Shown: positions 1 to 23,781, numbered from the stretch's first letter. The stretch: 64,000 bases of DNA from Lachnospiraceae bacterium (GCA_021202635.1 JAJQCQ010000079.1:378-64377), one strand, 5' to 3'. The notes: generated by a model from the sequence alone, not told the origin. Numbers and translations: made by a program.

Positions 1-2
1 TG

Positions 3-2564: not shown

Positions 2565-2572
2565 CCGGCCGA

Positions 2573-2614
2573 AGCCAGGCCGCCCGGTGTGAACTTTTAC
2601 CAGGCGGCCTGGCT
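2573..2614. terminator. Perfect 12-bp inverted repeat between convergent genes (terminator-like hairpin)
   Basis: agccaggccgcc (2573-2584) pairs with ggcggcctggct (2603-2614), 18-nt loop. It lies between the + gene stop (2564) and the - gene stop (2714). No clean U-tract. Confidence 0.4.
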
Positions 2615-2713
2615 CATCTTGTCGCACAAATGCTACTATTGAAAACGATGTCGCACAGTTTTTGTCAACCCATCGCAGGGAAAGAGTTTTCCTGCTTAAT
2701 TTGCCACCGGGTC

Positions 2714-4600: not shown

Positions 4601-4651
4601 AGTTTTTCCCTCCATGCATTATCTTTCGTTGCTATTCCGCTCAGACAATTT

Positions 4652-6088
4652 TTATGCCCGCAGACACAATAATGGCCGCAGAAACGAAATAATCTTTTTG
4701 TATTTTTCTGCATATTTACGCGCTTCTCTGTTACCCAGTTTATCAGCTTTCTGGAACAGTTTCCATGCTTTTTTAATATTTTTTTCATCTCCTTTGGTAT
4801 AGCAGATCCCGGCATGCAGCAGAAACTCCGCATGTTTCTTCCGTCCCAGGGTTCCGGCAATTTCATCTTCTGCATGTAATAACACTTTTTCAAACCAGTA
4901 CCTGGCTCTGTCATATTTCCGGACGTTATAATTTTTCTCCCCTGTTTCATATTGCGCCAGCATATGTCCGAGTTTCGCTGCCTGGCACCGGCATCGGCAT
5001 GCCTCTTTATAATCTCTGTTGCGTCCGCCCCATGCATTTACTGCCAGCTGATAAAGCGCTTCCGCAGATTCTCCTTCTTCCGCTGCCTTCCGGTACCACT
5101 TCAGCGCCTCTGCCACGCTGGTGCCGGATGGCCCCATCCCAAAGCGAAGGCAGTTTCCCGCCATGACCATAGCATCCGTATTTCCTTTTTTTGCCGCCAT
5201 CATGAAGTCCATATATATCTCAAAAAAATTATGCCCGTCCCCGGAAGAACCGTCTGTAAGACCTCTATATAATTGTCTGTAACCTTCCCGGAGCCAGACA
5301 GAGCCGTCAGTATCCTCCTTATATTCTTCCGCTTTTGTTTTTAATGCCATATCCCTGCTGTCGAAGCGGTGCATGTTTTCCAGCAGCCATGTCTGCTTAA
5401 GGGTCTCTGTGTACAGCCTGCCAGTTTTATCGTTTTTGTCAGATATACCAATATGAAGAAGCTCCTGTTCCGCTTTTTCAAATAAATCCTTCGCGATGCC
5501 CGGATCCCTGCTTACACCTGAACCACTGCTATAGCAGCAGCCCAGAAAATACATGCATTCACAGGCAGAGAATGCATCCAGTTCGTTCATTTTGCCGATA
5601 CAGTCCGCATATAACACTTCCAGGAGGAAGCAGGTATCCTTGTCCCCTTCCGGTGAACCAAGCGCCTGCAGGAAATGCCCCACAGCTTCCGGAAATCTTT
5701 TTTCGGAATAACACTTTTTGCCACGTTCATACTGTTCCTGTGCGGTAAGTCCCTCCTGGCATCCAGTCCCATTGCGGTCCGTTTCTCCGCAATGGGAATC
5801 CTGTCTTTCTGCCTGCCAGTCCATTGCCAGATTATTTTCGAACTGTTCCATCTCTTCTGCAGACAGAAGTACAAGGGATGGAAAACTCAGGATATCCCTG
5901 CTGAAGTCCCACCCGCAGCATGCGCAGGCGTTGCCCTCTTTCTCCCTGCTTCCGCATCTTGGACAGGCTGTTGCTGCCCCATTCTCCATGGAAAACAGGT
6001 TCTGCGGGAAAATTTCTGCGGCAGCCGGATTGCAGCAGGGAGTACCCGCCCCTCTGCTGTCCGTCTGGATAAAACCAGCTTCAGCCAT
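4652..6088 (-). CDS. Zinc-ribbon + Sel1-like repeat protein
   Basis: N-terminal CPRC-x8-CACC zinc-ribbon motif. Sel1-like repeats follow (FLGCCYSSGSGVSRDPGIAKDLFEKA; MAGNCLRFGMGPSGTSVAEALKWYRKAAEEG; LYQLAVNAWGGRNRDYKEA). Start ATG 6088 has a GGGGAGGA RBS 5 nt upstream and sits 1 nt after the upstream TGA (6090-6092). Confidence 0.7.
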   Translation of the reverse strand: MAEAGFIQTDSRGAGTPCCNPAAAEIFPQNLFSMENGAATACPRCGSREKEGNACACCGWDFSRDILSFPSLVLLSAEEMEQFENNLAMDWQAERQDSHCGETDRNGTGCQEGLTAQEQYERGKKCYSEKRFPEAVGHFLQALGSPEGDKDTCFLLEVLYADCIGKMNELDAFSACECMYFLGCCYSSGSGVSRDPGIAKDLFEKAEQELLHIGISDKNDKTGRLYTETLKQTWLLENMHRFDSRDMALKTKAEEYKEDTDGSVWLREGYRQLYRGLTDGSSGDGHNFFEIYMDFMMAAKKGNTDAMVMAGNCLRFGMGPSGTSVAEALKWYRKAAEEGESAEALYQLAVNAWGGRNRDYKEACRCRCQAAKLGHMLAQYETGEKNYNVRKYDRARYWFEKVLLHAEDEIAGTLGRKKHAEFLLHAGICYTKGDEKNIKKAWKLFQKADKLGNREARKYAEKYKKIISFLRPLLCLRA

Positions 6089-6089
6089 A

Positions 6090-7514
6090 TCAATCCTCCC
6101 CTTTCCTCTTATGGAATGCCTTCTCCCAGGCACGGATTTCCCGGAGAATGTCTTCCTTCGGGTTCGTCGGGCAGGCCGCCAGCAGGCTGCTGAATTTATC
6201 TTTTCCCAGTATGTACGCCCCTGCTTTTAAAGAATCTATCGCCTCATCCTGGAATTTATCCAGATCCTCGCTGCCTGCGGCCCCCAGGCTCATCCCGCAT
6301 CCGAGGACTGGCCGGCAGGATCCGTTCCATACCGCATCAAGAATATCCAGTTTGATGCTGTTAATCAGGCGGTCCAGATCCCTGTAATTGTAGTTCTCTG
6401 TCATCCCTGCCATACTGTCAAATGTCAGGTCGTCCGCAAGCACCAGACTGCCCGCCAGGTCCCGCTTGAACTTGTCCGCCCTTGCCGCCTGGTCAGGAAG
6501 CCCTACAGAGATCAGATCCATCCGGTCCAGCACGGCGGAATCCACCCTGCCGGGATAATTCGTAGCAGCCACTATATATACCTGGTTCATTTTTTTCTTT
6601 TCCGCAGCCACCATGTCAAACCCGGTCAGGAACGAAGTCGTAAGCGTAGCGGAATGGTCTGGCAGGTCCTGTGCCGACCGGTTCCTGCAGACCCCGTCAA
6701 TCTCGTCAAAAAAGAGGAGACATGGGGCATTCTCAACAGCCATCTGGAAAAGGCTTGTCAGGATTTTTTCTGCCTCGCCCACATAACGGCTGAGGATATC
6801 AGAAACATTGGCAGATATAAATCTGCAGCCGTACCCCGTCATAATTTCATGGGCAAAAGCCTGTATGATATGCGTCTTTCCGCAGCCTGGCGGCCCCACA
6901 AACAGGAGGGCGGCCATATCTTCCAGCTTAAGGTATTTCTTAATTTTCCACATCCGGCTGCTGTCCATATACCTGGCCATGCGTGCTTTTTCTTTCTCCA
7001 TCCCTGCGATATCCTGGAAGCCGTGGCCGGGAGGTTCCTTTTTTATGCATTCCCTGGCAAGTGTTTCCCTCCTCTCCTTTTCACTCTTCCCCGCCTGCAT
7101 GCTCCCTTCCGCCCTGTTCATTCCCGGTCCGGCCGGTCTTTTTGCTGCAGGGACATACAATCCGCCTCCATCCAGGGCCTCCGGTTCCTGCATCTGCGTT
7201 TCCTTCGGGCGCATCATTTTTTCGTAAACCTCCGGGGCAATTTCCTTTATGATATCCAGCATCTGTCCCATAAGCTCCTGAAGCTTTTCCTTCTGGTACT
7301 GTTTTTCTTCCCCCACGCTGATTTTTGCCATCCTGCTGCGCAGCTTTGCTGCCTCAGACAGCAGGGAATATTCTTCCTTCGTATGCGTATTGCCGTTTCT
7401 GTAAAAAACATTCTGGCTTTCCCGCATCAGCCGCAGGCATTTGTTTTCCAGCGCAGACATTGTTTCCATGTAGTTATCCGTCATTCTCCTCCTTGGCGTT
7501 CCGGCCTGTTTCAC
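6090..7514 (-). CDS. Classic-clade AAA+ ATPase, Vps4/katanin-like, with helical N-terminal domain
   Basis: Walker A GPPGCGKT (nt 6873-6896), Walker B LLFFDEID, SRH ATNYPGRVDSAVLDRM. Segments LFQMAVENAPCLLFFDEIDGV and GLPDQAARADKFK parallel yeast Vps4 LFAMARENKPSIIFIDEVDAL and PLPDLAARTTMFE (recalled from memory). The GTG start at 7514 overlaps the upstream TGA (GTGA). An alternative ATG at 7484 follows AAGGAGGAG. Confidence 0.8.
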   Translation of the reverse strand: MKQAGTPRRRMTDNYMETMSALENKCLRLMRESQNVFYRNGNTHTKEEYSLLSEAAKLRSRMAKISVGEEKQYQKEKLQELMGQMLDIIKEIAPEVYEKMMRPKETQMQEPEALDGGGLYVPAAKRPAGPGMNRAEGSMQAGKSEKERRETLARECIKKEPPGHGFQDIAGMEKEKARMARYMDSSRMWKIKKYLKLEDMAALLFVGPPGCGKTHIIQAFAHEIMTGYGCRFISANVSDILSRYVGEAEKILTSLFQMAVENAPCLLFFDEIDGVCRNRSAQDLPDHSATLTTSFLTGFDMVAAEKKKMNQVYIVAATNYPGRVDSAVLDRMDLISVGLPDQAARADKFKRDLAGSLVLADDLTFDSMAGMTENYNYRDLDRLINSIKLDILDAVWNGSCRPVLGCGMSLGAAGSEDLDKFQDEAIDSLKAGAYILGKDKFSSLLAACPTNPKEDILREIRAWEKAFHKRKGED

Positions 7515-8182
7515 TTTAAGAATTCCAGGATCTGGTCATAAAGCACATTCTCATCCCTCGTCCGGGCTGTCATATTATTTTCCGGGAACAGCCGCAGCCA
7601 TTCATCGATCTCCTCATCAGCAGGCTTCTGCGATTCCGCCATGCATTCTTCCAGGCTTTTGCCGTCTATCAGGGCATCAATCACATCCCTGTCCGCCAGG
7701 GCGTCCATCTGTATATCTTCGTTCTGGAACGATGTCTCCAGTTCACTCAGCGCGGCCAGTGTCTTAACAAGCTCTGTCCCTGACTCCGAAGCCTTCTGGT
7801 CCAGGCTTTTCAGGTTATCCTTTACCTTTTTCGAATCCAGGCCATTGACCCGGCCTGAAAGAAAATTCATTTTCTGCAGTGCCGACCCCGTATCACGGAT
7901 TGCCTCCTTCAGTTCCAGGTCTTTACTGATGTTCCGCAGGTTTTTCTGTCCGCGCATGATTGTACAAAGGCTGTAATACGCAATCCCGATCCTTGCATAG
8001 TTGGAACGGTCCGCCAGTCCTTTCTTCTTATCAGCCCTGGCACAGCCCAGTTCAAAGCGGAGAAGCGAATCGTAGGTCTCCTGCAGCTCCCTCAGCTTCA
8101 TATCCAGTTCAAGTATTATCTTATCTGCATCCTGCTTTTTCTTCCCCTTCTGGCCGTTTGTGAAAAATCCCCCAAGTTTCAT
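7511..8182 (-). CDS. ESCRT-III/Snf7/PspA-like coiled-coil protein (223 aa)
   Basis: ESCRT-III-like size, N-terminal MKLGGFF, basic N-half (KGKKKQ, ADKKKG) and acidic C-half. ALQKMNFLSGRVNGLDSKKVKDNLKSLDQKASESGTELVKTL resembles the CHMP4/Snf7 helix-3/4 region. Acidic amphipathic C-terminal EEIDEWLRLF. GGGAGGAGGA RBS 6 nt before ATG 8182. Sits directly upstream of the Vps4-like ATPase. Confidence 0.45.
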   Translation of the reverse strand: MKLGGFFTNGQKGKKKQDADKIILELDMKLRELQETYDSLLRFELGCARADKKKGLADRSNYARIGIAYYSLCTIMRGQKNLRNISKDLELKEAIRDTGSALQKMNFLSGRVNGLDSKKVKDNLKSLDQKASESGTELVKTLAALSELETSFQNEDIQMDALADRDVIDALIDGKSLEECMAESQKPADEEIDEWLRLFPENNMTARTRDENVLYDQILEFLK

Positions 8183-8200
8183 GATGGTTCCTCCTCCCGT

Positions 8201-9331
8201 TTAATCATTTTCCAGCAATGTAGGTTCGGTGTACAGCACCCTGTCCTCCCTAGCTGCCTGTTCTTCGAGCACTTCCGTTTCCTCCTGCATTTCCATATTT
8301 TCCCACGCTTTCCCGGCATCCATCGCATATGTTTTCATGCTGCGGGAAGAGAAAGCCGCCTCGATTACCCTTGAAATGGTCCGGCCGCTTCTTTCCTGTT
8401 CGCTGATCCAGCTTATTTTCCCGCTCACTGCATCCAGGAAATCCCCCTGCACTTCCGGATCCGGAGCAGCCAGCAGAGGCATATCAGCCGCGAAAAAAAC
8501 AGTCCTCTGTTTTTCTATTGCAGCTTCCGTTTCCAGTATTACGGCATAATCCAGGGCAATCATCTTTTCCTGCTCTTCGCAGCTGTTTTTCATATTCCGG
8601 ATTTCGGTCTGGAAATTCGCCAGCTTCATTGCCCCCGCACTGAGCTTCTCCGTCACCCCGGCACTTTCCTCCAGTTCCTCCACGTATCCCGGGTTCGCTT
8701 TCCTGTAAGCCTCCACTTCCCTGTGCCGCATATTATATTCTGTTTTTAATGCTGCCGCCTGCTGTTCGCGTTTCCGTATGGAATTACGCAGGCACTGGAT
8801 GTATTTCCACTTTTCACTGACAGCCAGGTAAGCATCCATCCGCTTCTCCATGTCCCGGGCTTCTTCTTCGCTTTTCACAGGCTTTTTCGCCCGCAGGATC
8901 CCATATTCCAGCCCTTCCAGCATCCAGCGGCATGCTTTCATATTTCCGGCCTGGATACAGCTTCCAAGTCCCTGCAGGAGTTCTTCCAGTTTCCGGTCCG
9001 TCTCCGGGGTGTCGAAACTGCTTAACCTGCCAAGTTCCTCTTTCAGCGGCTCCAGCCGGCGGCGGATTTCCTGAACCTCTTCCGGTTTTAACAGCGATTT
9101 CTCACCCTCCTGGATCTGGATCCCGTTCACTTTTGCCAGGAGCGCCTGTCTGTGCCCGCGCACTTCAGCCACAGTTTTTTCCTCCTCCTGCTTCTTTTCC
9201 GGAGCCGGTTCTTTTGCATCAGACCCGGCCAGCCACATCCAGATTGCCTGGAACGTTTCCCTTATCCATCCCATATTCCTTTCCCATCCTTTCTTCTGGC
9301 AGACCAGCTGTTTCAATGCTTTACCCGGCAT
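8201..9331 (-). CDS. Long coiled-coil protein with aromatic amphipathic N-terminal helix (PspA/ESCRT-III-like?)
   Basis: Heptad-rich, E/K/R/L/Q composition with an acidic tail (MEMQEETEVLEEQAARED). If translation starts at ATG 9274, the N-terminus is MGWIRETFQAIWMWLAG, an amphipathic Trp-rich helix. Start choice (9331 vs 9274) is unresolved; neither has an ideal RBS. Confidence 0.4.
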   Translation of the reverse strand: MPGKALKQLVCQKKGWERNMGWIRETFQAIWMWLAGSDAKEPAPEKKQEEEKTVAEVRGHRQALLAKVNGIQIQEGEKSLLKPEEVQEIRRRLEPLKEELGRLSSFDTPETDRKLEELLQGLGSCIQAGNMKACRWMLEGLEYGILRAKKPVKSEEEARDMEKRMDAYLAVSEKWKYIQCLRNSIRKREQQAAALKTEYNMRHREVEAYRKANPGYVEELEESAGVTEKLSAGAMKLANFQTEIRNMKNSCEEQEKMIALDYAVILETEAAIEKQRTVFFAADMPLLAAPDPEVQGDFLDAVSGKISWISEQERSGRTISRVIEAAFSSRSMKTYAMDAGKAWENMEMQEETEVLEEQAAREDRVLYTEPTLLEND

Positions 9332-9334
9332 GAT

Positions 9335-9835
9335 TCAGCCAGGATCCCCAAACAGTCTTACAATGCACCAGAGGACCAGTCCTGTTACAGCAGACGGGAG
9401 GATGCTCATAATCCCCGCAAGGCCTGCATAGATAAGAAATTCCGCAAAATAATAAGAAAGCGTAGCCCCTTCCTCCGGTGCCGGCAGGATATCCACCCGT
9501 CCGATGAACATCCCGGCAACATACAGAATACTGCTTGCAGCGCATATCATTGTAAAATTCTGGAAATAATGGTCATCATACCCGTACCAGCAGATGCGGA
9601 AAACAAGCAGAAGCACCAGTGTCAGGTTCACTCCCGCCGCCACCATCCGGATCCGGTGCGCCCTCTCATCCGCGCTGCCAAGGAGCACCCACCACACCAG
9701 GACAGAAGCTGCGGCCAGCACCAGAATCACAACGGCCAGAATCCTGGTGAAACGCCCTGCCCTGTAAAAAAATGGCAGATGGATATGAATATCATTCTGG
9801 TCTTTCTTCAATTTTCTCCCCTCCCTTCCCTGCAT
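9335..9835 (-). CDS. Small integral membrane protein (about 4 TM helices)
   Basis: Hydrophobic spans ILAVVILVLAAASVLVWWVLLG, MVAAGVNLTLVLLLVFRICWY, MICAASSILYVAGMFIG and FLIYAGLAGIMSILPSAVTGLVLWCIVRLF. The ORF-track N-terminus (to 10027) overlaps the helicase and looks non-coding. Likely start is ATG 9835, or TTG 9811 preceded by GGGAGGGGAG. Confidence 0.6.
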   Translation of the reverse strand: MQGREGRKLKKDQNDIHIHLPFFYRAGRFTRILAVVILVLAAASVLVWWVLLGSADERAHRIRMVAAGVNLTLVLLLVFRICWYGYDDHYFQNFTMICAASSILYVAGMFIGRVDILPAPEEGATLSYYFAEFLIYAGLAGIMSILPSAVTGLVLWCIVRLFGDPG

Positions 9836-12800
9836 CCGTGGCCGCTGCCTGGCCGGCTGGCAGCGGCGGGAGGTTCCGCAGGATCCGGTGCTGTTCCCGG
9901 ATGGGATCATCGAACCAGTCGAGCGAAAAGACCCACAGCAGGTTCCAGCCCCTGTCCCGGAGCAGTTCCATCTGTCCGGCCTCCCTGTCCTGCACAGATA
10001 AATTCCTGCAGTACTGGCTGGTATCAAGGATCAGGCCAAGCACATAGCGGTCCGGATCGGCCGGATCCCGGATCCCGATATCGACGCGGAACCTTCCTGT
10101 CCCGACAAGGGTATCACACTGGTAACCGCTCTCCCGCAGGAATCCACAGATTTTCATCCGGAACCCGTCTGTATCCGTTTCTTCCTCCGTCTGCACAGTT
10201 TCCGAGCCATTGCCCCGGGCGAACAGCAGGAAATCCCTGAAATCCCTGACGCCCCTCCCGCTGCCTGGAGTGATACGTATCTGCTCCGGATCCAGTGAAG
10301 TGAACAGAAGCATTTCATCCCGTGCCCGCGTAAGGGCAACATTCAGCCTTTTATGTCCTCCGGCCTGTGCCAGGGGGCCAAAGTTCATTGTCAGCCTTCC
10401 TTTTGCATCCGGGCCGTAGCCGGTCGAAAACAGGATCACATCCCTCTCATCCCCCTGTACGCATTCCAGGTTCCGGATAAACAGGGGTTCCCCTTTTTCT
10501 TCCATGTTCCCAAGCGCCTGTTCCAGCTGATGGTTTCCCGCAGCCTCTTCTTCAAGCAGGGAAAGCAACAGCGCCTTCTGGTGAATGTTAAACGTGATGA
10601 TCCCATACGTCCTTCTGTCACCGGAAAGAAGCTTTTCCGCAAGATAAGCGATGCAGGCTTCCGCCTCTGTTCTGTTTGTCATGCTGTGCCCCCTGTCGTA
10701 AACGCCCCGGACGTTCCGGAAATGCACCCTTAGCCTGCGGTCTGCGGATGGGAAGGTCATCATCTTCCCCCCGTAATACCGTCCGTTTGGGAAGGATATC
10801 AGGCTTTCATGCGTACTCCTGTAATGCCATTGCAGGTAATGGTTCGGAAGCGAAAGTGCCAGTGCTTCCTTCAGGATACTTTCCTGGTCTGCGTCAAGCG
10901 GGTTATCGTCCACATCTCCCTCCGCTGCCGCATCAAAGAACGAGGTGGGAGGCATCTGGTTCGGATCCCCTGCAATAATGACCTGTTTTGTCCGGGCAAT
11001 CAGTCCCAGTGCAGCCGGGGTCTGGATCTGGGAAGCTTCGTCAAAAATCACTGCATCCGCCTTCCAGCCCGGCCCCAGATAAAGTGCCGCAGATGCCGGG
11101 GACAGGATCATACAGGGGGCAAGGACAGGGATCAGATCCGGCAGGAGATCCATCATGGAACGGATGCTCATGCCTTTCCCGCCGCTCTGTATCATCCGGT
11201 TCAGGCTGGTCATCTGGGTTTTTATCTTCCCGGGGCCATGTGCAAGCGCTTCATGCGCCCGTTCTGCCAGCCGTCCCCTTATTTTCCTCGCAGAAGCCTC
11301 ATAATATTTCCCCATGGTTTCCCGATAGCGCGCAGCCAGGTCTTCAAACTGAAAACCAGAAAAGCTCCGGATATCTTTATCCGCGCTGTACAAACGCTGA
11401 AGCAGGGCATGGCAGCAGGCGGCACGGAACGACGGAAACAGGCCGTCATGTGGAAGTCCGGATTCATACAGCCGGATAAAGGGTGACAGCTGTAATTCTT
11501 CGCACCGCCTGCGTACGGCCAGATACCCGCTCCATTCCTTTAAGTCATCAAGGCCTTCCTGCCACCGGCTGGCTGCCGCAAGTGCCTCTTCAAGCGTCTC
11601 CCCTCCCTGGTGCCAGAGGGCAGGTACCGGTGCGGCAGCCGCAAGTTTCCGGCTGGCCGCCTCAAGAGTCTTTACCTGGCTGGCGAAAAACTGCAGGCCG
11701 TCATCTGACCGGCTGTCCATCCCTGCGGCAAATTCCGCCAGTTCTTCCTCTGACTGGAACGCTTTTTCCAGAAGGGCAAGGATCGTGGCAGCAGTCTCCA
11801 GGGTAAACTCCCCGTCCGCTTCAATCGATGGCAGCACCGCCCGGATTTTCTGTACCTGCGTCTCCTGTTTTTTTACCAGGCATGCCATTTCCAGAAATTT
11901 CGTGATTTTTCCGTCATTCCACTTTTCAGCTTCCTCCCCAAGGAAGGAAAGCAGTTTCCCACGCAGCGCTGCGTGCTGCCGCCGGAAGCGCAGATCCAGC
12001 ATCCCTTTCTTCCACTGTTCCAGCATTTTCTCCAGCGGAAGCGTAAAAAATCTTTCCCGGTATGGTTCCCTGCAGTGGCCAAGGATCGCATCCCTGCGCT
12101 GCTGATACTGTCCTGCCAGGATCCACTGTTTCAGGGCTGTCAGCGGCCAGGACTGGGAACGCAGGGCTGCCGGAAGCTTCTGCAGGAGCTTTTCTTTCAC
12201 TTCCTCTGATCTGAGCTTTCTGGAAGCCATCTCCAGTCCCTCATAAGTGGTATCCCCCGTCTCGAAGCCTGCTGACATTTCGAGGTTTTTTATCTGGGCA
12301 GCCAGGCTCTGCAGCGCATCCTGATATGCCTCCAGTGCCGGCCGGATATCCCCTGCCATGGACGGGTAATATTCATAGGTTCCCCAGTCACTCAGCGGAT
12401 GCCCGTACGGGTGCCCGGTGTGCCGGCCGGCCTCCGTCAGTTCATGCAGGGCTTCTTCATATTCGTGCATTTTTTCTTTTGCAAGGGTATCCACAAAATC
12501 CTCTTCCAGCGAAAACGGGGGCAGGTATTCTTCCACCAGCAGATACTCTGAAAGCAGCTCACAGGCACTGCTCCCATACAGCCGCGCACCATGCAGCAGA
12601 TGATCCATCCGTTCCAGTTCAGCGGCGGCATCCGTAAGCTCCTGCCGGATTATATCATAGCCCCCATCTGCCTGCGTTTCAGCTTCTGCAGCCTCTTTTG
12701 CCTCCCGCATCTGTTCCAGGAAGGATTCCTTACGGCTGGAAGGAGTAAGATACAGGCAGAAAGGTGTCAGTGAAATTTGGGAAAGCCTGTCATACACCAC

Positions 12801-14939
12801 ATTCATCGCCGGGGCTTTTTCGGCTGAAAAGATTACTCTTTTTCCGGCATATATAAGGCCGCTGACCATATCCGCAATCACCTGGGTTTTTCCGGTCCCG
12901 GGAGGGCCATGCATAACACAGGACTCCCCTCCGAGTGCCGCCGCAATGGCTTCTTTCTGCGATGCATCTGCCGGCAGGGGCAGGACAAGCTCTGACAGTC
13001 TGGAAGGCTTTGCGTCCTTATTCAGATCTTCCGGCAGTTCGCCTGTTAAAAGCCCACGGATAAACGGGTGTTTCTGATACTCGTCCATATTCTCATTCAG
13101 GTCCTTCCAGAGGACAGACCTGCTGAATTCGAAAATGCCAAGTACAGCATTCTCAAAAACATCCAGGTCTGGTTCCAGGGCCAGGGCGTCCCTTAAATAC
13201 GGAAGGCACTTTCTGAAGTCCGGCTGTCCGTCAGAATCAGAAACATGTGCCAGATGAAGGCCTTTCTGTTTTCTCAGGAACTCAAATACAGCTTCATTGT
13301 ACTGTATGGCTCCCTCTGGCCGGATACGGAAGGAACGCCCTTCTTTGATAAGCATTGCCGGGGCCAGGATCAGCGGGGCATAATGGGGCTGTTTTTTCCT
13401 GCCATCCATCCAGCGGATCATTCCGAATGCCAGGCAGAGTGCACCCGAGCCGGTCTGGTCCCTGGTTTCAGTATCTTCCTTCCGCATGGCTGAGAGCAGC
13501 CTGGCAGATGCCCCATCTTCCAGGTCTGTATGCACGGTATCCTGTCCCAGGCTTGCAAGGATCACGTCCTGGCAGGCCCTTGCGCCGGACATCCGTTCAA
13601 AAAGTTCGGCGCTCCGGGAGGAAGCTTCAAAATCTTCCGGCCGGCCCGTAATACGGAGGGTTCTTCCGTTCTTTCCGAACTTGTCATAAAGCTGCCAGCA
13701 TCTGTTTTCCGCCGTGAGAACAGGCACAGCCTTTGAGGAACCGGAAGACAGGGACAGGTTCAGAAGCGGCGACCGCGCCGAGAGATCCAGCAGTCTGTTT
13801 ATCCATTTTTCCTTTTTCCCGGCTGCAGTATACCCTGGCATCTGCCGTTCTTCCGGTACGGGATACGAAAAATCTCCCGCAGGTACCCGGCGGCCAGCCT
13901 CCTCCTGCAGTACGGCCATCTGCCGCCCAGTCAGGAGGGAAGGCATGGGCGTCACCCCTGCTTTCCTGCTCCTGCTGATATCTGCCGCACGGAAATAATC
14001 GATTTTTTCATACAGATGCGCCTCAGCCGATGCTGCCGCAGCCTGAAAGCCGCAGATATATTTCCCCCGTGAAGCACAGGTGGCCTCAAAGAGGATGATA
14101 TCGCGGTTTCCTTCCCCGCATTTCTTCCGGAAAAAGGACGGGTCCGTACTGACCGGCTGGTCAAGAATCCCTTTTTCATTCAGCCACAGGCCGCATATCG
14201 CATGGCTTTCCAGCCTGTCCGTCTTCAGGCTGATCACGAACGGGTGCAGGCCCATTGCCTCAAGGCATGAGGCAAAAAGCAGGCTGAATTCAATGCAGTT
14301 TCCTGCATGCTCACTAAGCATATCGCCAGCCATCCGGATTCTCTGATAGCCCGGAAGATAGGTTGGCCTGGAAGAAATATACGCAATCTTCTGTTCCGCA
14401 ACTGCCCTGAACAGGCAGGACGCGTACTGTATTACTTTTTCTTTCGATCCGCCCTGGTAAGCCGAGATCGAATATCCGTTTCCTGATTCTGCCAGGAGTT
14501 CGGAGACCCTTGAAAGGATGCCGGGGATAAGCGGGTGATTCGGTGTCACGTAGGCTGCGATCTGGTAGAAATCTTTTTCCCAATGGCTCAGAAGATCCAG
14601 GGTCTGGAAGGGAATCGTGATGCTTTTTTCTGCCAGTATTTTTTCACCATCACGCATCTGTACCTGCACGGTGCCATCTGCCGCCTCTGTAAAAGCAAGG
14701 AGCGGCTCCGGGGTCCATGTAAAAACCGGGTCTGCTATTTTCTTTGTTTCCCCCGGCTCCAGGGAAATGCTTTCCGTATATTCTTGAAAAACTGCCGGGC
14801 TGGCAGTAATACGCAGCTCTCCCGCTGCCGGTTCCCTGCCTGTGTTTCTGACTGTAAGGTGTTCTACAAACGGCTTTGCGTTAAGATGGGCTGCATATTG
14901 AAAAATCGCCGGAAGAGTGAAATGAATCTGAACTGCCAT
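9792..14939 (-). CDS. Giant transglutaminase-like / DUF4011 / SF1 (Upf1-DNA2-like, AAA_11+AAA_12) helicase with C-terminal restriction-endonuclease-like domain (~1715 aa)
   Basis: Transglutaminase core HAGNCIEFSLLFASCLEAMGL (Cys codon 14295-14297) followed by ...SHAICGLW. DUF4011-like WINRLLDLSARSPLLNLS. Walker A HGPPGTGKTQ (12885-12908). Helicase motifs VIFDEASQ, IIAGDPNQMPP, LQWHYRS, VQGDERDVILFS and RLNVALTRAR. Tail RFRVDIGIRDPADPDRYVLGLILD...GWNLLWVFSLDWFDDP resembles DUF559/Vsr-like REase folds. Start set at ATG 14939 (AAGGGGGA RBS); the upstream 51 codons look non-coding. Confidence 0.85.
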   Translation of the reverse strand: MAVQIHFTLPAIFQYAAHLNAKPFVEHLTVRNTGREPAAGELRITASPAVFQEYTESISLEPGETKKIADPVFTWTPEPLLAFTEAADGTVQVQMRDGEKILAEKSITIPFQTLDLLSHWEKDFYQIAAYVTPNHPLIPGILSRVSELLAESGNGYSISAYQGGSKEKVIQYASCLFRAVAEQKIAYISSRPTYLPGYQRIRMAGDMLSEHAGNCIEFSLLFASCLEAMGLHPFVISLKTDRLESHAICGLWLNEKGILDQPVSTDPSFFRKKCGEGNRDIILFEATCASRGKYICGFQAAAASAEAHLYEKIDYFRAADISRSRKAGVTPMPSLLTGRQMAVLQEEAGRRVPAGDFSYPVPEERQMPGYTAAGKKEKWINRLLDLSARSPLLNLSLSSGSSKAVPVLTAENRCWQLYDKFGKNGRTLRITGRPEDFEASSRSAELFERMSGARACQDVILASLGQDTVHTDLEDGASARLLSAMRKEDTETRDQTGSGALCLAFGMIRWMDGRKKQPHYAPLILAPAMLIKEGRSFRIRPEGAIQYNEAVFEFLRKQKGLHLAHVSDSDGQPDFRKCLPYLRDALALEPDLDVFENAVLGIFEFSRSVLWKDLNENMDEYQKHPFIRGLLTGELPEDLNKDAKPSRLSELVLPLPADASQKEAIAAALGGESCVMHGPPGTGKTQVIADMVSGLIYAGKRVIFSAEKAPAMNVVYDRLSQISLTPFCLYLTPSSRKESFLEQMREAKEAAEAETQADGGYDIIRQELTDAAAELERMDHLLHGARLYGSSACELLSEYLLVEEYLPPFSLEEDFVDTLAKEKMHEYEEALHELTEAGRHTGHPYGHPLSDWGTYEYYPSMAGDIRPALEAYQDALQSLAAQIKNLEMSAGFETGDTTYEGLEMASRKLRSEEVKEKLLQKLPAALRSQSWPLTALKQWILAGQYQQRRDAILGHCREPYRERFFTLPLEKMLEQWKKGMLDLRFRRQHAALRGKLLSFLGEEAEKWNDGKITKFLEMACLVKKQETQVQKIRAVLPSIEADGEFTLETAATILALLEKAFQSEEELAEFAAGMDSRSDDGLQFFASQVKTLEAASRKLAAAAPVPALWHQGGETLEEALAAASRWQEGLDDLKEWSGYLAVRRRCEELQLSPFIRLYESGLPHDGLFPSFRAACCHALLQRLYSADKDIRSFSGFQFEDLAARYRETMGKYYEASARKIRGRLAERAHEALAHGPGKIKTQMTSLNRMIQSGGKGMSIRSMMDLLPDLIPVLAPCMILSPASAALYLGPGWKADAVIFDEASQIQTPAALGLIARTKQVIIAGDPNQMPPTSFFDAAAEGDVDDNPLDADQESILKEALALSLPNHYLQWHYRSTHESLISFPNGRYYGGKMMTFPSADRRLRVHFRNVRGVYDRGHSMTNRTEAEACIAYLAEKLLSGDRRTYGIITFNIHQKALLLSLLEEEAAGNHQLEQALGNMEEKGEPLFIRNLECVQGDERDVILFSTGYGPDAKGRLTMNFGPLAQAGGHKRLNVALTRARDEMLLFTSLDPEQIRITPGSGRGVRDFRDFLLFARGNGSETVQTEEETDTDGFRMKICGFLRESGYQCDTLVGTGRFRVDIGIRDPADPDRYVLGLILDTSQYCRNLSVQDREAGQMELLRDRGWNLLWVFSLDWFDDPIREQHRILRNLPPLPAGQAAATDAGKGGEKIEERPE

Positions 14940-16134
14940 TATAAAGTCCCCCTTTCTGGGTCTGTCCTGCTGTTTCAGTATCTGCCTGGAAAACCGGCGG
15001 GGAACCCCTGTACCACTCCCCGCCTGCGGCAAGCACAAGCCAGGCACACTGCCTCTCATCAAGTACGATACCGGCATGCCAGGAGCCTTCACATTTTGGG
15101 GTTTCCACCGAAATGCGGCGTATCTGTTCGTTCACGCCTGTCCTCCCGCCCGTCCGGATAATTACAGAAACCTCCAGGATATCCGTGCCGGTGTGTTTTG
15201 TCCGGGCAAACTCCTGCCCCAGCCAGACCACTTCCCCATCCGCAAGAATACCTAAGTCAGCCAGGTCCGTCCTTTTTTCCTCCGGCGTTATCCTTCCGTT
15301 TTCCATCCTGTAAGTGTAATAAAGGATGCCTGTCTGGACTCCGCAAAGTGTCTGGTGCTGGGAACCGCGATCTTTCCAGACAGGGTTTTTCCTGTTCCCG
15401 TCTTTTGCGCAGAGGACATTATCCATGAATTCCAGCACAGGCTCCAGTTCGTCCTCTTCCAGGTTTCCCCACCATCTGCCATCTCCACTGGCAGCAGTTT
15501 CTCCGGAAATGCCTCTTTTCCGCCCCAGGCAGCCTGCCTTTTCGAATTTTTCAGCCACCATGATATCCACACTGCTGTTTCCCAGGGCAATGAAAGAAAA
15601 CGCCCTGGCCGCCGCTTCCAGGAGTTCCAGATCCTGTTCTTTTTCCGCCAGTTCCATATCATCAAGCAGATCACGCAGCTGTGTCTCTCCTTCTGCCATA
15701 CTTTCCAGGATATGGCAGCCAGGGACAGAAAAAAGTTCCATAAGTGCTTCCAGAAGCATATCAGCCAGCGCCTCTGTTCTTTCTGCATCCAGGCTGTATG
15801 CCCATTCCAGTTTTCCGTGAAGCATGCGGCCGATTTTTTCCCTGCCATTTTTGCCAGGCATATGGAAAGATCCTGGCATAAACCGTGCAAGGAATTCATA
15901 AGGCAGAAAATTTTTCTCCGCAGCCCGTTTCCGAATTTCGCTGATTCCCGGAAAAATCCCATCCACCCAGGAGCGGTCACCTATAAGGAAATCCAGTGTT
16001 CCTGCGGCATCAGGAGTATCCTGCAAAAAAATCACCTGTTTCCCGCATTGCATATCTTTCTGCCTGGCGCTCAGCGCATACAGTTCTGCTTCCAGTCCTG
16101 GAGTGTATTCTGACAGCATCCTGGCCGGGATCAC
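14881..16134 (-). CDS. Hypothetical protein, downstream piece of a gene split at an A7 tract
   Basis: 417-codon ORF beginning at GTG with no recognisable family. A TGA lies 10 codons upstream in this frame. Removing one A from the A7 run (T7 on + strand, 16145-16151) joins it to the 16010..16516 ORF. The last 59 nt overlap the helicase start. Confidence 0.5.
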   Translation of the reverse strand: MIPARMLSEYTPGLEAELYALSARQKDMQCGKQVIFLQDTPDAAGTLDFLIGDRSWVDGIFPGISEIRKRAAEKNFLPYEFLARFMPGSFHMPGKNGREKIGRMLHGKLEWAYSLDAERTEALADMLLEALMELFSVPGCHILESMAEGETQLRDLLDDMELAEKEQDLELLEAAARAFSFIALGNSSVDIMVAEKFEKAGCLGRKRGISGETAASGDGRWWGNLEEDELEPVLEFMDNVLCAKDGNRKNPVWKDRGSQHQTLCGVQTGILYYTYRMENGRITPEEKRTDLADLGILADGEVVWLGQEFARTKHTGTDILEVSVIIRTGGRTGVNEQIRRISVETPKCEGSWHAGIVLDERQCAWLVLAAGGEWYRGSPPVFQADTETAGQTQKGGLYNGSSDSFHSSGDFSICSPS

Positions 16135-16516
16135 GAATGCCCTGTTTTTTTCCTTCCTGCTTCAGCAGCTGGATCATCAGGCGGAGCAGATGTTCCGGGG
16201 AAACCAGAAACTCCGTAACCTGGCCAGCCTCATGCATGGTTCTTCTCACCCTTTTTTCCATATCGGATGAGAGAAGCGCTTCCAGCGACTCCTGGTCACG
16301 CACCTGCAGCCGCAGACGGGGTCCCTCCCGCACATGCACAGGCCAGCTGCTTTTCTTTTTGGAGCCGTTCCGGCATGCGAAAAACACTTCATCCCAGCCC
16401 TTTTTTTTCATCTGGTAATGGAGATAGCCGGGCATATCCAGCTTCCGCAGGCTGCCATTGTCAGCCAGGCATATGCTTTCATCCGGGTCATAAAGCATAA
16501 AATGAAACAGACTCAT
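16010..16516 (-). CDS. Hypothetical protein, upstream piece of the same split gene
   Basis: ATG 16516 is preceded by GGGGAGGTGA (5-nt spacer). After ...LMIQLLKQEGKK (the A7 tract) the remaining 41 codons overlap the 14881..16134 ORF and look out of frame. Confidence 0.5.
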   Translation of the reverse strand: MSLFHFMLYDPDESICLADNGSLRKLDMPGYLHYQMKKKGWDEVFFACRNGSKKKSSWPVHVREGPRLRLQVRDQESLEALLSSDMEKRVRRTMHEAGQVTEFLVSPEHLLRLMIQLLKQEGKKQGIRDPGQDAVRIHSRTGSRTVCAERQAERYAMRETGDFFAGYS

Positions 16517-16534
16517 AACTGTCACCTCCCCGTA

Positions 16535-16813
16535 TCAATGGACAAACACTGTTTTCAGCAGAAGGATGTATTCCTTTTCCCGGAGATACAAAGCTGCAAG
16601 TTCCATCACTTTCGCTGTTTCATGCAGAGGAAGTACATCAAGATACTCTTTTATGATCTTCTCATACACAGCTGCATCCGGGCAGAAACTGAGGCTCCCC
16701 CTGAGTACCAGATAGGAATTAAGGGATACTTCAAGGGACAGAAGCTCCTCGTCTGCCATCATTCCGGTTCGAAATTTTAACAATGTCCTCACCCTCCGCT
16801 TCTCGACATTCAT
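16535..16813 (-). CDS. Small hypothetical protein (92 aa), first gene of the minus-strand operon
   Basis: ORF directly downstream of a sigma70-like promoter and 18 nt upstream of the next start. Predicted helical; no family recognised. Confidence 0.4.
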   Translation of the reverse strand: MNVEKRRVRTLLKFRTGMMADEELLSLEVSLNSYLVLRGSLSFCPDAAVYEKIIKEYLDVLPLHETAKVMELAALYLREKEYILLLKTVFVH

Positions 16814-16824
16814 CTGGGTTTCCT

Positions 16825-16852
16825 GTTATATTTTGCTGCAGCGGAATATCAA
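16825..16852 (-). promoter_or_regulatory. Putative sigma70-type promoter of the minus-strand operon
   Basis: On the minus strand: TTGATA (16847-16852), 16-nt spacer, TATAAC (16825-16830), 11 nt before ATG 16813. Confidence 0.35.
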
Positions 16853-16876
16853 TTTCAATCCTCATTATTCCGGCTG

Positions 16877-16897
16877 TTTTCATGAAAGTTTCGCAGC
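16877..16897. promoter_or_regulatory. Repeated intergenic motif TTTTCATGAAAGTTTCGCAGC (copy 1), contains palindrome TTTCATGAAA
   Basis: Identical 21-mer occurs again at 21784-21804. Flanks are also similar (ATTCCGGCTG vs AATCCGGGTTA). Lies in the divergent region between the operon promoter and the 17050 gene promoter. Confidence 0.5.
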
Positions 16898-16988
16898 AAT
16901 CATGACAGACATGCAGGGCAAAATTCCGTTTAAAAGAAAGGTGGAACGCCTGAAAGACAAATTGTTTTCAGAATCATCCGATTTTTCC

Positions 16989-17018
16989 TTGCAAACCATA
17001 CAGGGAATAACGTAAAAT
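16989..17018 (+). promoter_or_regulatory. Putative sigma70-type promoter of the 17050..20280 gene
   Basis: TTGCAA (16989-16994), 18-nt spacer, TAAAAT (17013-17018). AAGGAGGAAA RBS 6 nt before ATG 17050. Confidence 0.4.
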
Positions 17019-17049
17019 GAATTCAATTACGACGAAGGAGGAAATTCCA

Positions 17050-20000
17050 ATGGCACGGAAAGAAAAAGAATCCGGAAATATGTCTCTGGGAAGTAAATCA
17101 AGACAGGCCGATAAAAACAGTGCCAGGATTCTGGCTGCCAGAATGCTCTCTGAAACCCCGCTGACAGGCTGCCGCCGGAAGCAGGAGGATGGGAGTTGGC
17201 GGATGGATCTGCTTCTGGCAGGCCCCGGTCTGGTACATGACGCCCTTTTTTCAATGCTTTTGTCCTGTGCAGAAATGCTGGACACACGCCTCGTCATCCG
17301 TATGGTTCTTCCGTCCGCTGAAGAAGCCCTGCGGCGTTACGTTCAAGACTGGCCCCTTTTCCCGAAAGCTGTAAGCCTGTTCCTGCAGGACAGCCCGGCT
17401 AAGGACAATAGAGGAAACCCGCTCTCCCTGGACTGCAATGTAACAGATGAACCTTTCGCGGAAGTCCGCTTTTACACATCCAATCCCGGCGAAGGCATAG
17501 AAAGCCTTATCCGCCAGATGGAAGCTTCAGAGGATATAAGCTGGATATGCCTTGCCAGTGACGATGGGGAGCAGAACCGCATGGAAGCATACTCCCTGGC
17601 TGCTTCCGGAGTATGCCCGGCAGGCTGCCGCATTGATTTCTATGATGGCAGCCCATGCACCCGGCAGGACAAAAGCTTCTGGAATGGCACCTATGCCCAG
17701 GCAAAGCTCCTGCATAAGTACTATACACGTACATGGAATGAACGGGCCACAAACGCAGAGATCCTGAAGGATTTCCAGTCCTCATCCTATAACATCCAGT
17801 CTTCCCTGTGCAGTGTCCTTTCCATTCCCTATAAGCTGGTTTCCGTCGGGATCAGCAGTACCGGGGAGAAAGCTGCGGCAGAATTTTACCAGCGTATCCT
17901 TTCCCCAGGCGTTCCGCAGCAGGGTCTGAATCATCTGATCCATCTTGAACACAGGCGCTGGATCCTGTTTCTAATGACGGAAGGGTATGACCTGCCGGCC
18001 CGGGAACAGATCCGGCAGTATGCCTTCCATGGGGAAAATGACCAGCGGGACAAAAAGAATAAGCTTCATCCGTTTTTATGCGACAGCAGCCCGGATCAGG
18101 GAATCCGGCTCGGACAGCTTGACAGACAATCCTGGGAAAGATCCCAGACATTCTCTGATTTCGAATCACAGGGCATTCCTCTTGACAGGCTGGACAGCAT
18201 GTCCCTGTGGCTCCACCAGGAATGCAGTGCCCGCACCCGCAGCCTCAGCCTCCAGACTGGCAGTCTGAAAGATGCTTTTACTGCCCTGAAGCGGGAACTG
18301 CACCAGGAAGGTTATGGGGCATCCGCATTCGAGATGACCGAAACGCTCCAGTCCGTCGCACAGAGAATGCTGGATAATGAATACCATATTAACCAGCTCT
18401 GGCATATGGCCTGCCGCAGGCTGGATGATGCCGTAAGCACCCACAAAAAAGCAGATCCGCTCCACCTGGAAGGGACATCTTCTGCGTTCGGAAACCTGAA
18501 AAACCTTATGAGCGTTGTAGAAGAAAGGAACCTGTATCACGATTATAAGGCAAGCGACCTTACATTAATTGAAGTAATCCCGCTCCTGCTGACCGCGTCT
18601 GATCCGATCCGGAAGATCCATAAGCCAGTCGGAAGCGAGGGATGGCAGAATATTATATCTTCCCTCCTGATTGAACCTCAGGAGCTTATTCTGTATTCCG
18701 ATTTTCCCGAAAAACTTGGGGAAGACATCCCCACGCTGAAAAAATTCATGCAGGACAGGGGCCTTGATGTGAAAATCAGCATAAAAGAAACTTCTGCCCT
18801 GCGGGACATGAAAGTCCCGTGGAATGCCGTAAAAAGCGTGATCGATGTGACCGGAATCTCTGCCATGCAGGCATTTGAAATTTCCCAGTCACCGAACCTT
18901 TCTTTCATTCCGGTGATCGCGTTCAGGGGCGGTATGCTGCACAGCCTGCGCGGGAACTCCGGAGCAGAATATTACAGTACCGTCAGCCGGCATCTTTCCG
19001 TAACGGAAACCTTTCGCCTGAACCATGCCTGTCCATACTCGGACGAGAGCCAGAATTACATACTTGGACTGGGCAATTCCTATTCCAGGATCTGGTACGT
19101 ATATTCCAGGCATACCTCCTACGAATGGCATGTCCTGTGCCAGTTCCTTGCCCATATTGAGGGAGAACATTATTGGAAACTGGAAGACATTTCTTCTCCC
19201 AGGAAGGAGGAAAACAGGAATTTTGGCAATATCCCCGGGCGTCAGCTCACAGACGCAAAAATAGATACCGTCCTGCGGGAACTCCATACCAGGCGGCTCA
19301 TCGGACAATACAGCGTGCCCTCAGACGGCCAGATCGGGCCTGTGACAATCCGCTCGAAGTATCCCGGAATCTTTGAAGCGGTAGAAAAAATGCTGAGCCT
19401 TTGCAAGAAAGAAGCCTGGTATCATACCTTCCTGCTTCTCGATACGGTGCGCGATCCAATGACTGGAAAGCCATCCGGGAAAAAAGAATTATACATTTAC
19501 GACGATACACTGCTTGTTAACTGCAGTTTTTCAGAAGAAAGCCTGCGAAAAACACTGTCCGGTGCTTCCTCCGATCCTTTTTCCAGCAGGGCTGCTGATA
19601 ACTGCGGCATCATAAAAAATCTGCTGCAGGATCTCCTGGCCCAGACGTCAACCACGAAAAGTGATGGCGCACCTATGGTAATCCAGCCCGTAAGCGGTAC
19701 AGAAATTATCACGCCGAAAGCCTCCAGCCCGGGAGAACAGGCTGCATGCTTTACTTACGTCAGCCGGTCCGTAAAAGAGTGCCTGATGAAGGAAGGAAAT
19801 GTGCTGGAGGCATACACCTACTATTCCATCCAGCGGAACGTCCTCGTAGACGACCTGAAGCTGAATGTTGCTTTTGTCTGGGATGCTGAATCCGGTTCGG
19901 AAGCCCTCCTGCCGGAAGCCGTCACAAACGAAATTGACCTGGTGTTTACCAGAAACCTTCAGACCTATTTTGTTTCCTGCAAACAGTCAAAACCGGAGAC

Positions 20001-20280
20001 CCGTTTCCTGGAAGAGATAAAAATCATGGCAGAAAATTTCGGAATCGATCCGAAAGCGATCCTTATCTGTTCTAACTGGGATACGAGCCGTAAATCCGTC
20101 GAAAGGGATCCCGGCACGCAGAGACGGAACAGGCTGGTCTCCGAGCGGGCTAAGAAAACGGGGGTTTATTACATTGACCGTGGGATGATTGGCGATACGT
20201 ACAATGAATTCAAGGAAAACCGGCTTGGGAAATACATCCAGAATATTATTGATGGGAAAGCAGACTGGGATAAGATATAA
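17050..20280 (+). CDS. Giant protein: Rossmann-like + RyR-like module (paralogous to 3..2564) fused to a Card1-like module (CARF-like Rossmann domain + PD-(D/E)xK nuclease, DUF1887-type)
   Basis: RyR-like IHLEHRRWILFLMTEGY...KLHPFLCDS (nt ~17935-18085). Card1/DUF1887-like N-lobe QELILYSD...VIDVTGISAMQAFEI (compare the TGGTK motif). Nuclease signature NEIDLVFTRNLQTYFVSCKQSK (19927-19986; compare NEIDv...IECK). Start moved to ATG 17050 because of the strong RBS. Confidence 0.6.
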   Translation: MARKEKESGNMSLGSKSRQADKNSARILAARMLSETPLTGCRRKQEDGSWRMDLLLAGPGLVHDALFSMLLSCAEMLDTRLVIRMVLPSAEEALRRYVQDWPLFPKAVSLFLQDSPAKDNRGNPLSLDCNVTDEPFAEVRFYTSNPGEGIESLIRQMEASEDISWICLASDDGEQNRMEAYSLAASGVCPAGCRIDFYDGSPCTRQDKSFWNGTYAQAKLLHKYYTRTWNERATNAEILKDFQSSSYNIQSSLCSVLSIPYKLVSVGISSTGEKAAAEFYQRILSPGVPQQGLNHLIHLEHRRWILFLMTEGYDLPAREQIRQYAFHGENDQRDKKNKLHPFLCDSSPDQGIRLGQLDRQSWERSQTFSDFESQGIPLDRLDSMSLWLHQECSARTRSLSLQTGSLKDAFTALKRELHQEGYGASAFEMTETLQSVAQRMLDNEYHINQLWHMACRRLDDAVSTHKKADPLHLEGTSSAFGNLKNLMSVVEERNLYHDYKASDLTLIEVIPLLLTASDPIRKIHKPVGSEGWQNIISSLLIEPQELILYSDFPEKLGEDIPTLKKFMQDRGLDVKISIKETSALRDMKVPWNAVKSVIDVTGISAMQAFEISQSPNLSFIPVIAFRGGMLHSLRGNSGAEYYSTVSRHLSVTETFRLNHACPYSDESQNYILGLGNSYSRIWYVYSRHTSYEWHVLCQFLAHIEGEHYWKLEDISSPRKEENRNFGNIPGRQLTDAKIDTVLRELHTRRLIGQYSVPSDGQIGPVTIRSKYPGIFEAVEKMLSLCKKEAWYHTFLLLDTVRDPMTGKPSGKKELYIYDDTLLVNCSFSEESLRKTLSGASSDPFSSRAADNCGIIKNLLQDLLAQTSTTKSDGAPMVIQPVSGTEIITPKASSPGEQAACFTYVSRSVKECLMKEGNVLEAYTYYSIQRNVLVDDLKLNVAFVWDAESGSEALLPEAVTNEIDLVFTRNLQTYFVSCKQSKPETRFLEEIKIMAENFGIDPKAILICSNWDTSRKSVERDPGTQRRNRLVSERAKKTGVYYIDRGMIGDTYNEFKENRLGKYIQNIIDGKADWDKI

Positions 20281-23708: not shown

Positions 23709-23781
23709 TATCACAGCAGGTATCTGAAACAGGCTGCGCGAAATGCGCAGCCTTGGCATTTTATCATGCGAGGAAAAGAAA

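Follow-up and report, generated by a model that had tools for sequence, protein, structure and literature searches.

A predicted Card1/Can2-type sensor-nuclease outside CRISPR in Lachnospiraceae and its possible link to TIR signalling

What turns on a Card1-like nuclease that is encoded outside a CRISPR locus? The question is raised by a gene in a 64,000-nucleotide stretch of DNA from a Lachnospiraceae bacterium (GCA_021202635.1, JAJQCQ010000079.1:378-64377), which is called the window here. A preliminary description of the window had read the end of the encoded 'giant' protein as a Card1-like Rossmann sensor followed by a PD-(D/E)xK nuclease, and had proposed a TIR enzyme encoded nearby as the source of its signal. 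CARF domains are the textbook receptors of cyclic oligoadenylate (cOA) signalling in CRISPR systems, and in Thoeris and in plant immunity the signals are made by TIR enzymes. We read the protein, by analogy, as a Card1/Can2-type receptor-nuclease whose messenger would come from TIR enzymes at the level of its family. The family appears to be a large group of multidomain proteins on conjugative-element or defence-island DNA of Lachnospiraceae, and the window protein a member without the usual kinase. Taken together, these two statements stand, in our judgement, evenly between right and wrong.

A single plus-strand open reading frame (ORF) spans 17017-20280. The gene was taken as 17050-20280, encoding 1076 amino acids (aa), because GAAGGAGG lies just ahead of the ATG at 17050, the likely start, and because P0002, an ortholog with 89% protein identity, begins at the same Met. 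Over 659 codons, the ratio of nonsynonymous to synonymous substitution rates (dN/dS) against the ortholog at locus L008 (89% identity) is 0.17. The gene is under purifying selection and is not a wreck.

The rear half of the protein is identified from its predicted structure. An AlphaFold2 model of aa 505-1076 (572 aa), built with 34 homologs, has a mean predicted local distance difference test (pLDDT) of 87.6 and a predicted template-modelling score (pTM) of 0.87. In a Foldseek search of the PDB with this high-confidence model, the top 16 matches (E <= 2e-4) were exclusively Card1, Can2, Cdn1 and Can1 proteins: VC1899 (1XMX, E 1e-12), Can2 (8BAO, 2e-9), Cdn1 (9U49, 3e-9), TbrCan2 (8Q3Y and others) and Can1 (6SCE, 2e-4). 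The seventeenth match had an E-value of only 0.02. Template-modelling (TM) scores of 0.58-0.62 to Card1/Can2, normalised to the entire two-domain target, exceed what the nuclease domain alone could give, so both sensor and nuclease contribute. By this model, and as the preliminary description had supposed, the rear half is a CARF4-type Rossmann sensor with a PD-(D/E)xK nuclease, outside CRISPR. Between the two domains lies an insertion of ~245 aa that has no counterpart in classical Card1/Can2 proteins (targets of 367-437 aa versus 572 aa modelled).

Sequence profiles add to this picture in part. The full window protein matched no family in Pfam or NCBIfam; its score to PF09002 (Card1_endonuc) is 15.9 bits, below the gathering score of 26.4, which the relatives P0038, P0088 and P0122 exceed. 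Two PADLOC models, CARF4--CARF_PDDEXK and Csx1 (CARF+nuclease), match aa ~900-1010, the former best (E 2.5e-10, aa 902-1007), and these matches come from the nuclease part of the models only. P0038, a distant colinear relative of 928 aa, is matched by the CARF4--CARF_PDDEXK model in one stretch covering profile positions 23-362 of 364. A profile of the whole family searched against the PDB was swamped by matches to kinases. Within the sensor segment, the best-conserved positions are K525 and D599-x-T601-G602 (85-94% in 131 relatives), which stand in the loops after beta1 and beta4, presumably the ligand-holding loops of CARF domains. The motif VIDVTGISAMQAFEI, earlier placed at the position of the TGGTK motif of Card1-type proteins, is present at aa 597-611.

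Is the nuclease likely to be active? The DUF1887 signature reported earlier, NEIDLVFTRNLQTYFVSCKQSK, is present at aa 960-981 (nt 19927-19992), although its end had been placed 6 nt short of the true end at 19992. Its last motif does read S-C-K, as had been noted with concern: where Card1/Can2 proteins have the canonical D...(D/E)-x-K motif, the window protein reads D963...S976-C-K978. Ser976 stands in for the motif-III glutamate, because in the alignment to Can2 (8BAO) NEIDC..FVECK lies opposite NEIDL..FVSCK of the window protein. The concern is largely resolved by the relatives. E920-D963-S976-x-K978 occurs in 150 of 178, with each residue 98-100% conserved, and S-x-K is the majority state of the clade, found also in stand-alone Card1-like proteins of ~370-430 aa. 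When E989 is included, the site residues are 95-100% conserved in the 150 S-x-K relatives. A Glu 11 residues past the lysine (E989) varies together with the S-x-K state: 142 of 149 S-x-K proteins have it versus none of six E-x-K proteins (Fisher p 1e-7). In the AlphaFold2 model it sits in the helix after the lysine-bearing strand. The same arrangement is known from Cfr10I/NgoMIV-type enzymes, in which a PD...S-x-K site (compare S976-x-K978...E989) is completed by a glutamate from a downstream helix; these type II restriction enzymes are unrelated, cut double-stranded DNA at specific sequences and lack a sensor domain. TbrCan2, which is experimentally active, likewise has a Ser at the position of Card1 Glu308 (PMC10783487). 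The site is probably a permuted but intact variant in which E989 would supply the second carboxylate. The nuclease is thus probably not dead, and activity of the S-C-K protein is plausible.

The front half resembles nothing as closely. Its AlphaFold2 (AF2) model (aa 1-510, pLDDT 89.3) has a Rossmann-like alpha/beta part (aa ~40-200) and, after it, a long stretch of helices, and fold searches of the PDB and of a viral structure set gave nothing better than E 0.05. Many polar residues are invariant, including H222, Y247, N248, K262, E300, H340, D379 and D382, and they suggest a binding or catalytic site. The front half is a family-specific Rossmann-plus-helical module, possibly with a second ligand- or partner-binding site. 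A RyR-like segment had also been described here, at aa ~295-345. The RyR domain (PF02026) had no Pfam match at E <= 10 in the window protein, its sub-segments or 17 homologous segments; a PDB profile search was empty, and no RyR structure appeared in the two fold searches (PDB and viral set). The resemblance is at the level of a motif only, and a RyR domain is not supported. The features of the gene and its surroundings are collected in Table 1.

Table 1. Features of the sensor-nuclease gene and of its neighbourhood, in window coordinates
Feature	Position	Strand	Basis or remark
Giant-family protein gene, 1076 aa, kinase-less	17050..20280	+	ORF, ribosome-binding site, ortholog start, dN/dS
N-terminal module, aa 1-510	17050..18579	+	AF2 model, conservation
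CARF4-like Rossmann sensor domain, aa ~510-650	18577..18999	+	Fold matches, P0038 CARF4 profile, loop conservation
Sensor loops: K525 after beta1; D599-V-T601-G602 after beta4	18844-18855 (D599-V-T601-G602)	+	Conservation
Insertion of ~245 aa, aa ~651-894, mixed alpha/beta	19000..19731	+	Secondary structure of model
PD-(D/E)xK (Card1_endonuc-type) nuclease domain	19732..20277	+	PADLOC, PF09002, 8BAO alignment, site conservation
Site residues E920; D963; S976-C-K978; E989	19807-19809; 19936-19938; 19975-19983; 20014-20016	+
Divergent intergenic region	16814..17049	.	Promoter-like hexamers, both strands
92-aa ORF, immediate divergent neighbour of the giant gene	16535..16813	-	Kept beside the gene in the closest relative, L008
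13.9-kb block, nine minus-strand ORFs	2632..16531	-	blastn of L008 versus window, junction sequences
TIR-Sel1 protein, 633 aa	2714..4615	-	Pfam TIR_2 2.2e-9, Sel1 1.9e-46
N-module paralog, 959 aa, 3' part	1..2564	+	Shares only the N-terminal module of the giant

The window protein differs from most of its close relatives in one respect. A first homology search gave 38 proteins, nearly all ~1420 aa long, with 34-44% identity to the window protein across 98-100% of its length. They carry an additional N-terminal Ser/Thr kinase of ~335 aa, which the window protein lacks, and its start coincides with their post-kinase linker. The epithet 'giant' therefore suits a large protein of 1076 aa, but the full-sized giants are its relatives with the kinase that is missing here. 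A kinase remnant upstream of the start was considered and rejected: a tblastn extension to 16972 is of low identity and runs through stop codons. An exhaustive search with the rear half returned 512 clusters (50% identity) at E <= 1e-3. Among 180 proteins examined, which comprise the best 150 of the 512 clusters and the earlier homologs, ~80 are clearly kinase-fused, ~20 have divergent kinase-like N-termini and ~30 are kinase-less, this last class being counted on true N-module positions with the kinase columns excluded. The kinase-less relatives (870-1140 aa) have the same form as the window protein. The kinase-like N-termini of some 20 long representatives (P0065-P0178, 1240-1420 aa) mostly lack the D-x-K-x-x-N catalytic-loop motif, and these proteins may be pseudokinases.

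The genes that travel with the family were sought by scanning ~25 distinct giant-family loci with purpose-built hidden Markov models and Pfam; the contexts of P0023 and P0060, whose contigs are too short, were left out. Kinase-bearing giants are always directly preceded by P698, a protein of ~700 aa (for example L001 7889-9985 and L005 7881-9977, with 10 other loci). Searches of Pfam, NCBIfam and PDB profiles with P698 gave weak baseplate-J/gp6-like matches only, and it cannot be recognised as a cyclase. The kinase-bearing giants usually have a PP2C or Metallophos phosphatase nearby. Most giant loci also contain a KOW/NusG-like gene of ~190 aa with a weak KOW motif (L001 5823-6365 and 10 other loci), whose product is possibly a NusG-like antiterminator. 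Paralogs of the N module of ~750 aa, analogous to that of the window, adjoin giants in L012, L013, L015, L016, L017 and L035. The preliminary description had missed the usual kinase fusion and these conserved partners, namely P698, the phosphatase, the NusG-like gene and the N-module paralog. A scan of the sequence around the gene, from the window's start to 30 kb, found no P698, phosphatase or NusG-like gene, and by kinase and P698 the window protein is not a member of the kinase-fused giant family (P0003-P0031). TraG/VirD4 genes flank relatives in L005, L009, L010, L022 and L024, which suggests, as it does for the window, that conjugative elements carry the giant-family loci. Downstream of the window gene lie a small vWA-domain gene (20407-21075, minus strand) and a truncated TraG/VirD4 coupling-protein gene (23743-24795, plus strand).

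TIR genes are recurrent neighbours of the family. By raw counts, 12 of ~25 loci have a TIR gene within 10 kb of the giant, and in 10 of these it is no more than two genes away; the other two are L022, with a distance of 8 kb, and this window. In L012 and L029/L035 an N-module paralog is followed by a TIR-SBP gene and a kinase-less giant, and in L038 a TIR gene precedes a kinase-less giant. A TIR-WD40 gene stands immediately before P698 in L013 and L015, and a TIR-LRR gene immediately after the giant in L024 (21% identical). Four TIR genes surround the giant in L021; of the TIR genes of this locus (1481-22193), one encodes a TIR-STAND-TIR protein of 821 aa and another a protein kinase-TIR fusion of 644 aa. 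The catalytic Glu is kept in all aligned TIRs, some family-neighbour TIRs exceed the ThsB_TIR threshold, and the neighbour TIRs carry swapped sensor modules (SBP, WD40, LRR, Sel1 and STAND). No TIR was found near the giants of L018 and L019, which stop short of the CARF-nuclease half. The enrichment of TIR genes beside the giant family is suggestive, and a TIR-to-CARF signalling logic is a credible lead for the family.

For the window locus the same lead is weak. The TIR-Sel1 protein keeps a catalytic Glu context (NCYHEI), but its gene lies 12.4 kb from the start of the giant gene, on the opposite strand, at the far end of a block that encodes proteins of 171 aa and 417 aa, an Hhe/PDC-S37-like helicase-nuclease, three unknowns, an AAA+ ATPase, a Sel1 protein and TIR-Sel1. 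Nine minus-strand ORFs separate the two genes if the 92-aa ORF is counted with eight block ORFs. By blastn, L008 1422-4049 corresponds to window 2-2631 and L008 4069-6564 to window 16532-19022. The entire block is missing in L008, because its flanks are contiguous there. The giant gene, its 92-aa divergent neighbour and the N-module paralog stand side by side in L008, so that in this co-occurrence check the gene does not co-vary with the TIR operon at this locus. The proposed link between a TIR enzyme and a ligand-gated nuclease thus gains from the recurrent TIRs with catalytic Glu beside relatives and loses from a window pair that is not conserved. G+C content is 0.52-0.56 at 6-16 kb versus 0.45-0.47 in the flanks of the block. 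Target-site duplications, repeats and an integrase were sought at the block borders, with nothing convincing and no integrase at the junctions; there is a short TGTCGCACA repeat at the left border. A TIR homologous to that of TIR-Sel1 occurs near a giant-family operon in L013 only. Neither in the window nor in L008 did a search of the interval from the paralog to the giant gene find a remnant of the operonic TIR-SBP gene.

The preliminary description had the TIR operon and the giant gene share one divergent control region. The minus-strand array starts 236 nt from the giant gene, and the three promoter-like hexamers observed in the intergenic region are not above chance (1.2 +/- 1.2 expected). 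The array and the giant gene may share a control region. The N-module paralog (<1-2564) is likely the real partner of the giant gene, as judged from its conserved position: it adjoins the giant gene in L008 (988-3984, 979 aa), and the 959/979-aa form was found in just two genomes when 5.8 billion clustered proteins were searched.

Other genes of the window deserve brief mention. The 1766-aa SF1 (superfamily 1) helicase at 9792-15092 (minus strand), with DUF4011 and a C-terminal MTES_1575 restriction endonuclease domain, has a near full-length match to PDC-S37, a candidate defence model (E 1.6e-235), and resembles Hhe. A helicase of the same type flanks a giant-family gene in L020. The AAA+ ATPase at 6090-7514 (minus strand) resembles IetA/TRIP13 (PADLOC 2e-21) and lies beside the Sel1-repeat protein (4652-6133, minus strand) and TIR-Sel1. 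The ATPase, Sel1 and TIR proteins may form an uncharacterised system, and AAA genes with a core similar to this ATPase occur in L013, L016 and L018. The RecD2-type helicase at 31031-33751 (minus strand), which has a DUF4186 domain at its C-terminus, appears unrelated to the giant gene.

How might such a protein work? By analogy with Card1/Can2, a nucleotide messenger would bind the CARF4 sensor of a dimer and turn on non-specific nucleic-acid cleavage, which would halt either an invader or the cell that is infected. This messenger would probably be other than a CRISPR cOA. Judging from the neighbourhoods, its likeliest source at the level of the family would be a TIR enzyme fused to a variable invader-sensing module, much as in Thoeris. 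In the window, TIR-Sel1 is the sole candidate source in view, and its pairing with the giant gene appears to be recent or accidental; the conserved partner there would be the N-module paralog. A more ambitious version makes the family a new Thoeris-like class, in which TIRs fused to interchangeable invader sensors would make an NAD-derived messenger. CARF4, a receptor class tied to our knowledge only to cyclic oligoadenylates so far, would read it and thereby switch on the permuted-site nuclease, along with the Ser/Thr kinase where a member has one, as most do; the window copy would be able to hear a TIR acquired in trans. We regard this version as tentative and rather doubtful.

Several points weigh against a receptor-nuclease fed by TIR enzymes. 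We know of no TIR product that is sensed by a CARF domain. About half of the giant loci have no TIR gene within 10 kb, and the family is located in defence islands, a setting rich in TIR genes in any case. L008 keeps the giant gene with no TIR in the 4.6 kb upstream, on a contig that ends inside the gene. The sensor segment alone had no match in a sequence-profile search against the PDB, so that the CARF call rests on fold and transitive homology. Finally, a few relatives have degenerate F-x-R or S-x-V sites, and nuclease activity is therefore not universal in the family.

One alternative does without a messenger. The protein would serve a conflict system controlled by kinase and phosphatase as a DNA-binding or nuclease subunit, either constitutive or regulated by a partner; the TIRs would be parallel NAD-depleting effectors or kinase targets, and the front Rossmann module may sense changes in NAD or ADP-ribose. 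The Ser/Thr kinase of most relatives, its place beside a PP2C or Metallophos phosphatase and P698, the kinase-TIR fusion of L021 and the many invariant polar residues of the N module all fit such a scheme, and sensor-fused TIRs (WD40, LRR, STAND) can be self-contained sensor-effectors. However, kinase-less members keep the TIR link, even in three-gene operons with the TIR gene directly upstream, the sensor loops are among the best-conserved positions, and the giants of L018 and L019, which end before the CARF-nuclease half, have no TIR nearby. We consider this explanation, with its two parts taken together, unlikely.

A second alternative keeps the messenger and makes it conventional: the protein would be a receptor for cA3, cA4 or cA6 from a synthase elsewhere in the genome (Cas10 of type III CRISPR, a cyclase of CBASS or a minimal CRISPR polymerase), with TIR neighbours that are unrelated to it. 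All the nearest solved structures are indeed cOA-activated nucleases, about half of the loci are free of TIR genes, and in Panoptes non-CRISPR CARF effectors are reported to read cA3 (PMC13577387). Yet no cas gene was found among the annotated ORFs of the window (1-33.7 kb), and cas, Cas10 and CD-NTase families are not listed in the precomputed Pfam tables of the homolog loci L001, L005 and L020-L024 or of L041 and L042 from the window contig. The conserved neighbours are instead P698, a phosphatase, the NusG-like gene and TIR genes, and the sensor has diverged past sequence recognition from cOA-binding CARF4 domains. We hold a conventional cOA receptor to be quite improbable. The idea that the window copy is a decaying, N-terminally truncated giant that has lost its kinase, its P698 partner and its function draws on the kinase-bearing form of nearly all first-search homologs and on the missing P698, phosphatase and NusG-like gene, but it is largely refuted, and in our view very remote, given purifying selection with a shared start codon, an intact ORF with no upstream kinase remnant, ~30 independent kinase-less relatives and a full set of nuclease site residues.

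The receptor-nuclease proposed here can be set against several known systems. Card1, Can2 and Cdn1 (CARF4-clade CRISPR ancillary nucleases; DUF1887, PF09002; 1XMX, 6WXX, 8BAO, 8Q3Y and 9U49) share with it a Rossmann CARF sensor followed by a PD-(D/E)xK nuclease, the NEID...x-C-K signature and, in the active TbrCan2, a Ser at the motif-III acidic position. They are compact two-domain proteins of ~370-440 aa, whereas the window protein has a 500-aa N module, the insertion and an S-x-K site with the Glu moved downstream; its relatives are fused to Ser/Thr kinases, and no CRISPR-Cas or cyclase neighbourhood appeared in the tables scanned. Can1, also a larger CARF-nuclease with extra domains, differs in having a pair of CARF domains plus a nuclease-like domain within a single chain, in its link to type III CRISPR and in its activation by cA4.

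Thoeris (types I, II and IV) is similar at the level of the family: one conserved effector gene stands with one or several TIR genes whose catalytic Glu is intact, some of the TIRs match ThsB_TIR, and the locus lies on a defence island or mobile element. Known Thoeris effectors read their signal through SLOG (type I) or Macro (type II) domains, neither of which was detected in any search of the window protein. The type IV effector is caspase-like (PMC13243611). Here, in contrast, CARF4 would be the reader, the TIRs carry SBP, WD40, LRR, Sel1 or STAND modules as fusions, and in the window the neighbourhood with the TIR gene is not conserved. A CARF sensor outside a CRISPR locus is also a feature of Panoptes CARF-TM and other non-CRISPR CARF effectors; the mCpol cyclase of Panoptes adjoins its effector, and no cyclase was found here. 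In the literature, no description was found of a TIR system with a non-CRISPR Card1/Can2-like protein or of a kinase-CARF4 fusion, with some results muddied by unrelated word matches. The architecture, the clade-wide permuted site, the non-CRISPR context and the recurrent TIR partnership were likewise not found described. The sensor-nuclease module belongs to a fold family that is already known, and the TIR-to-CARF logic is apparently undescribed.

The giant family is common on mobile elements of human-gut Lachnospiraceae and carries no functional annotation. Its S-x-K form of the Card1 site appears to be a conserved permutation and no mark of inactivation, which would be useful for annotating many DUF1887 proteins. 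If the proposed reading is true, a Card1-type CARF-nuclease beside sensor-fused TIRs would join the worlds of CRISPR-cOA and TIR signalling, and TIR-to-CARF signalling would widen the range of ligands that CARF domains read.

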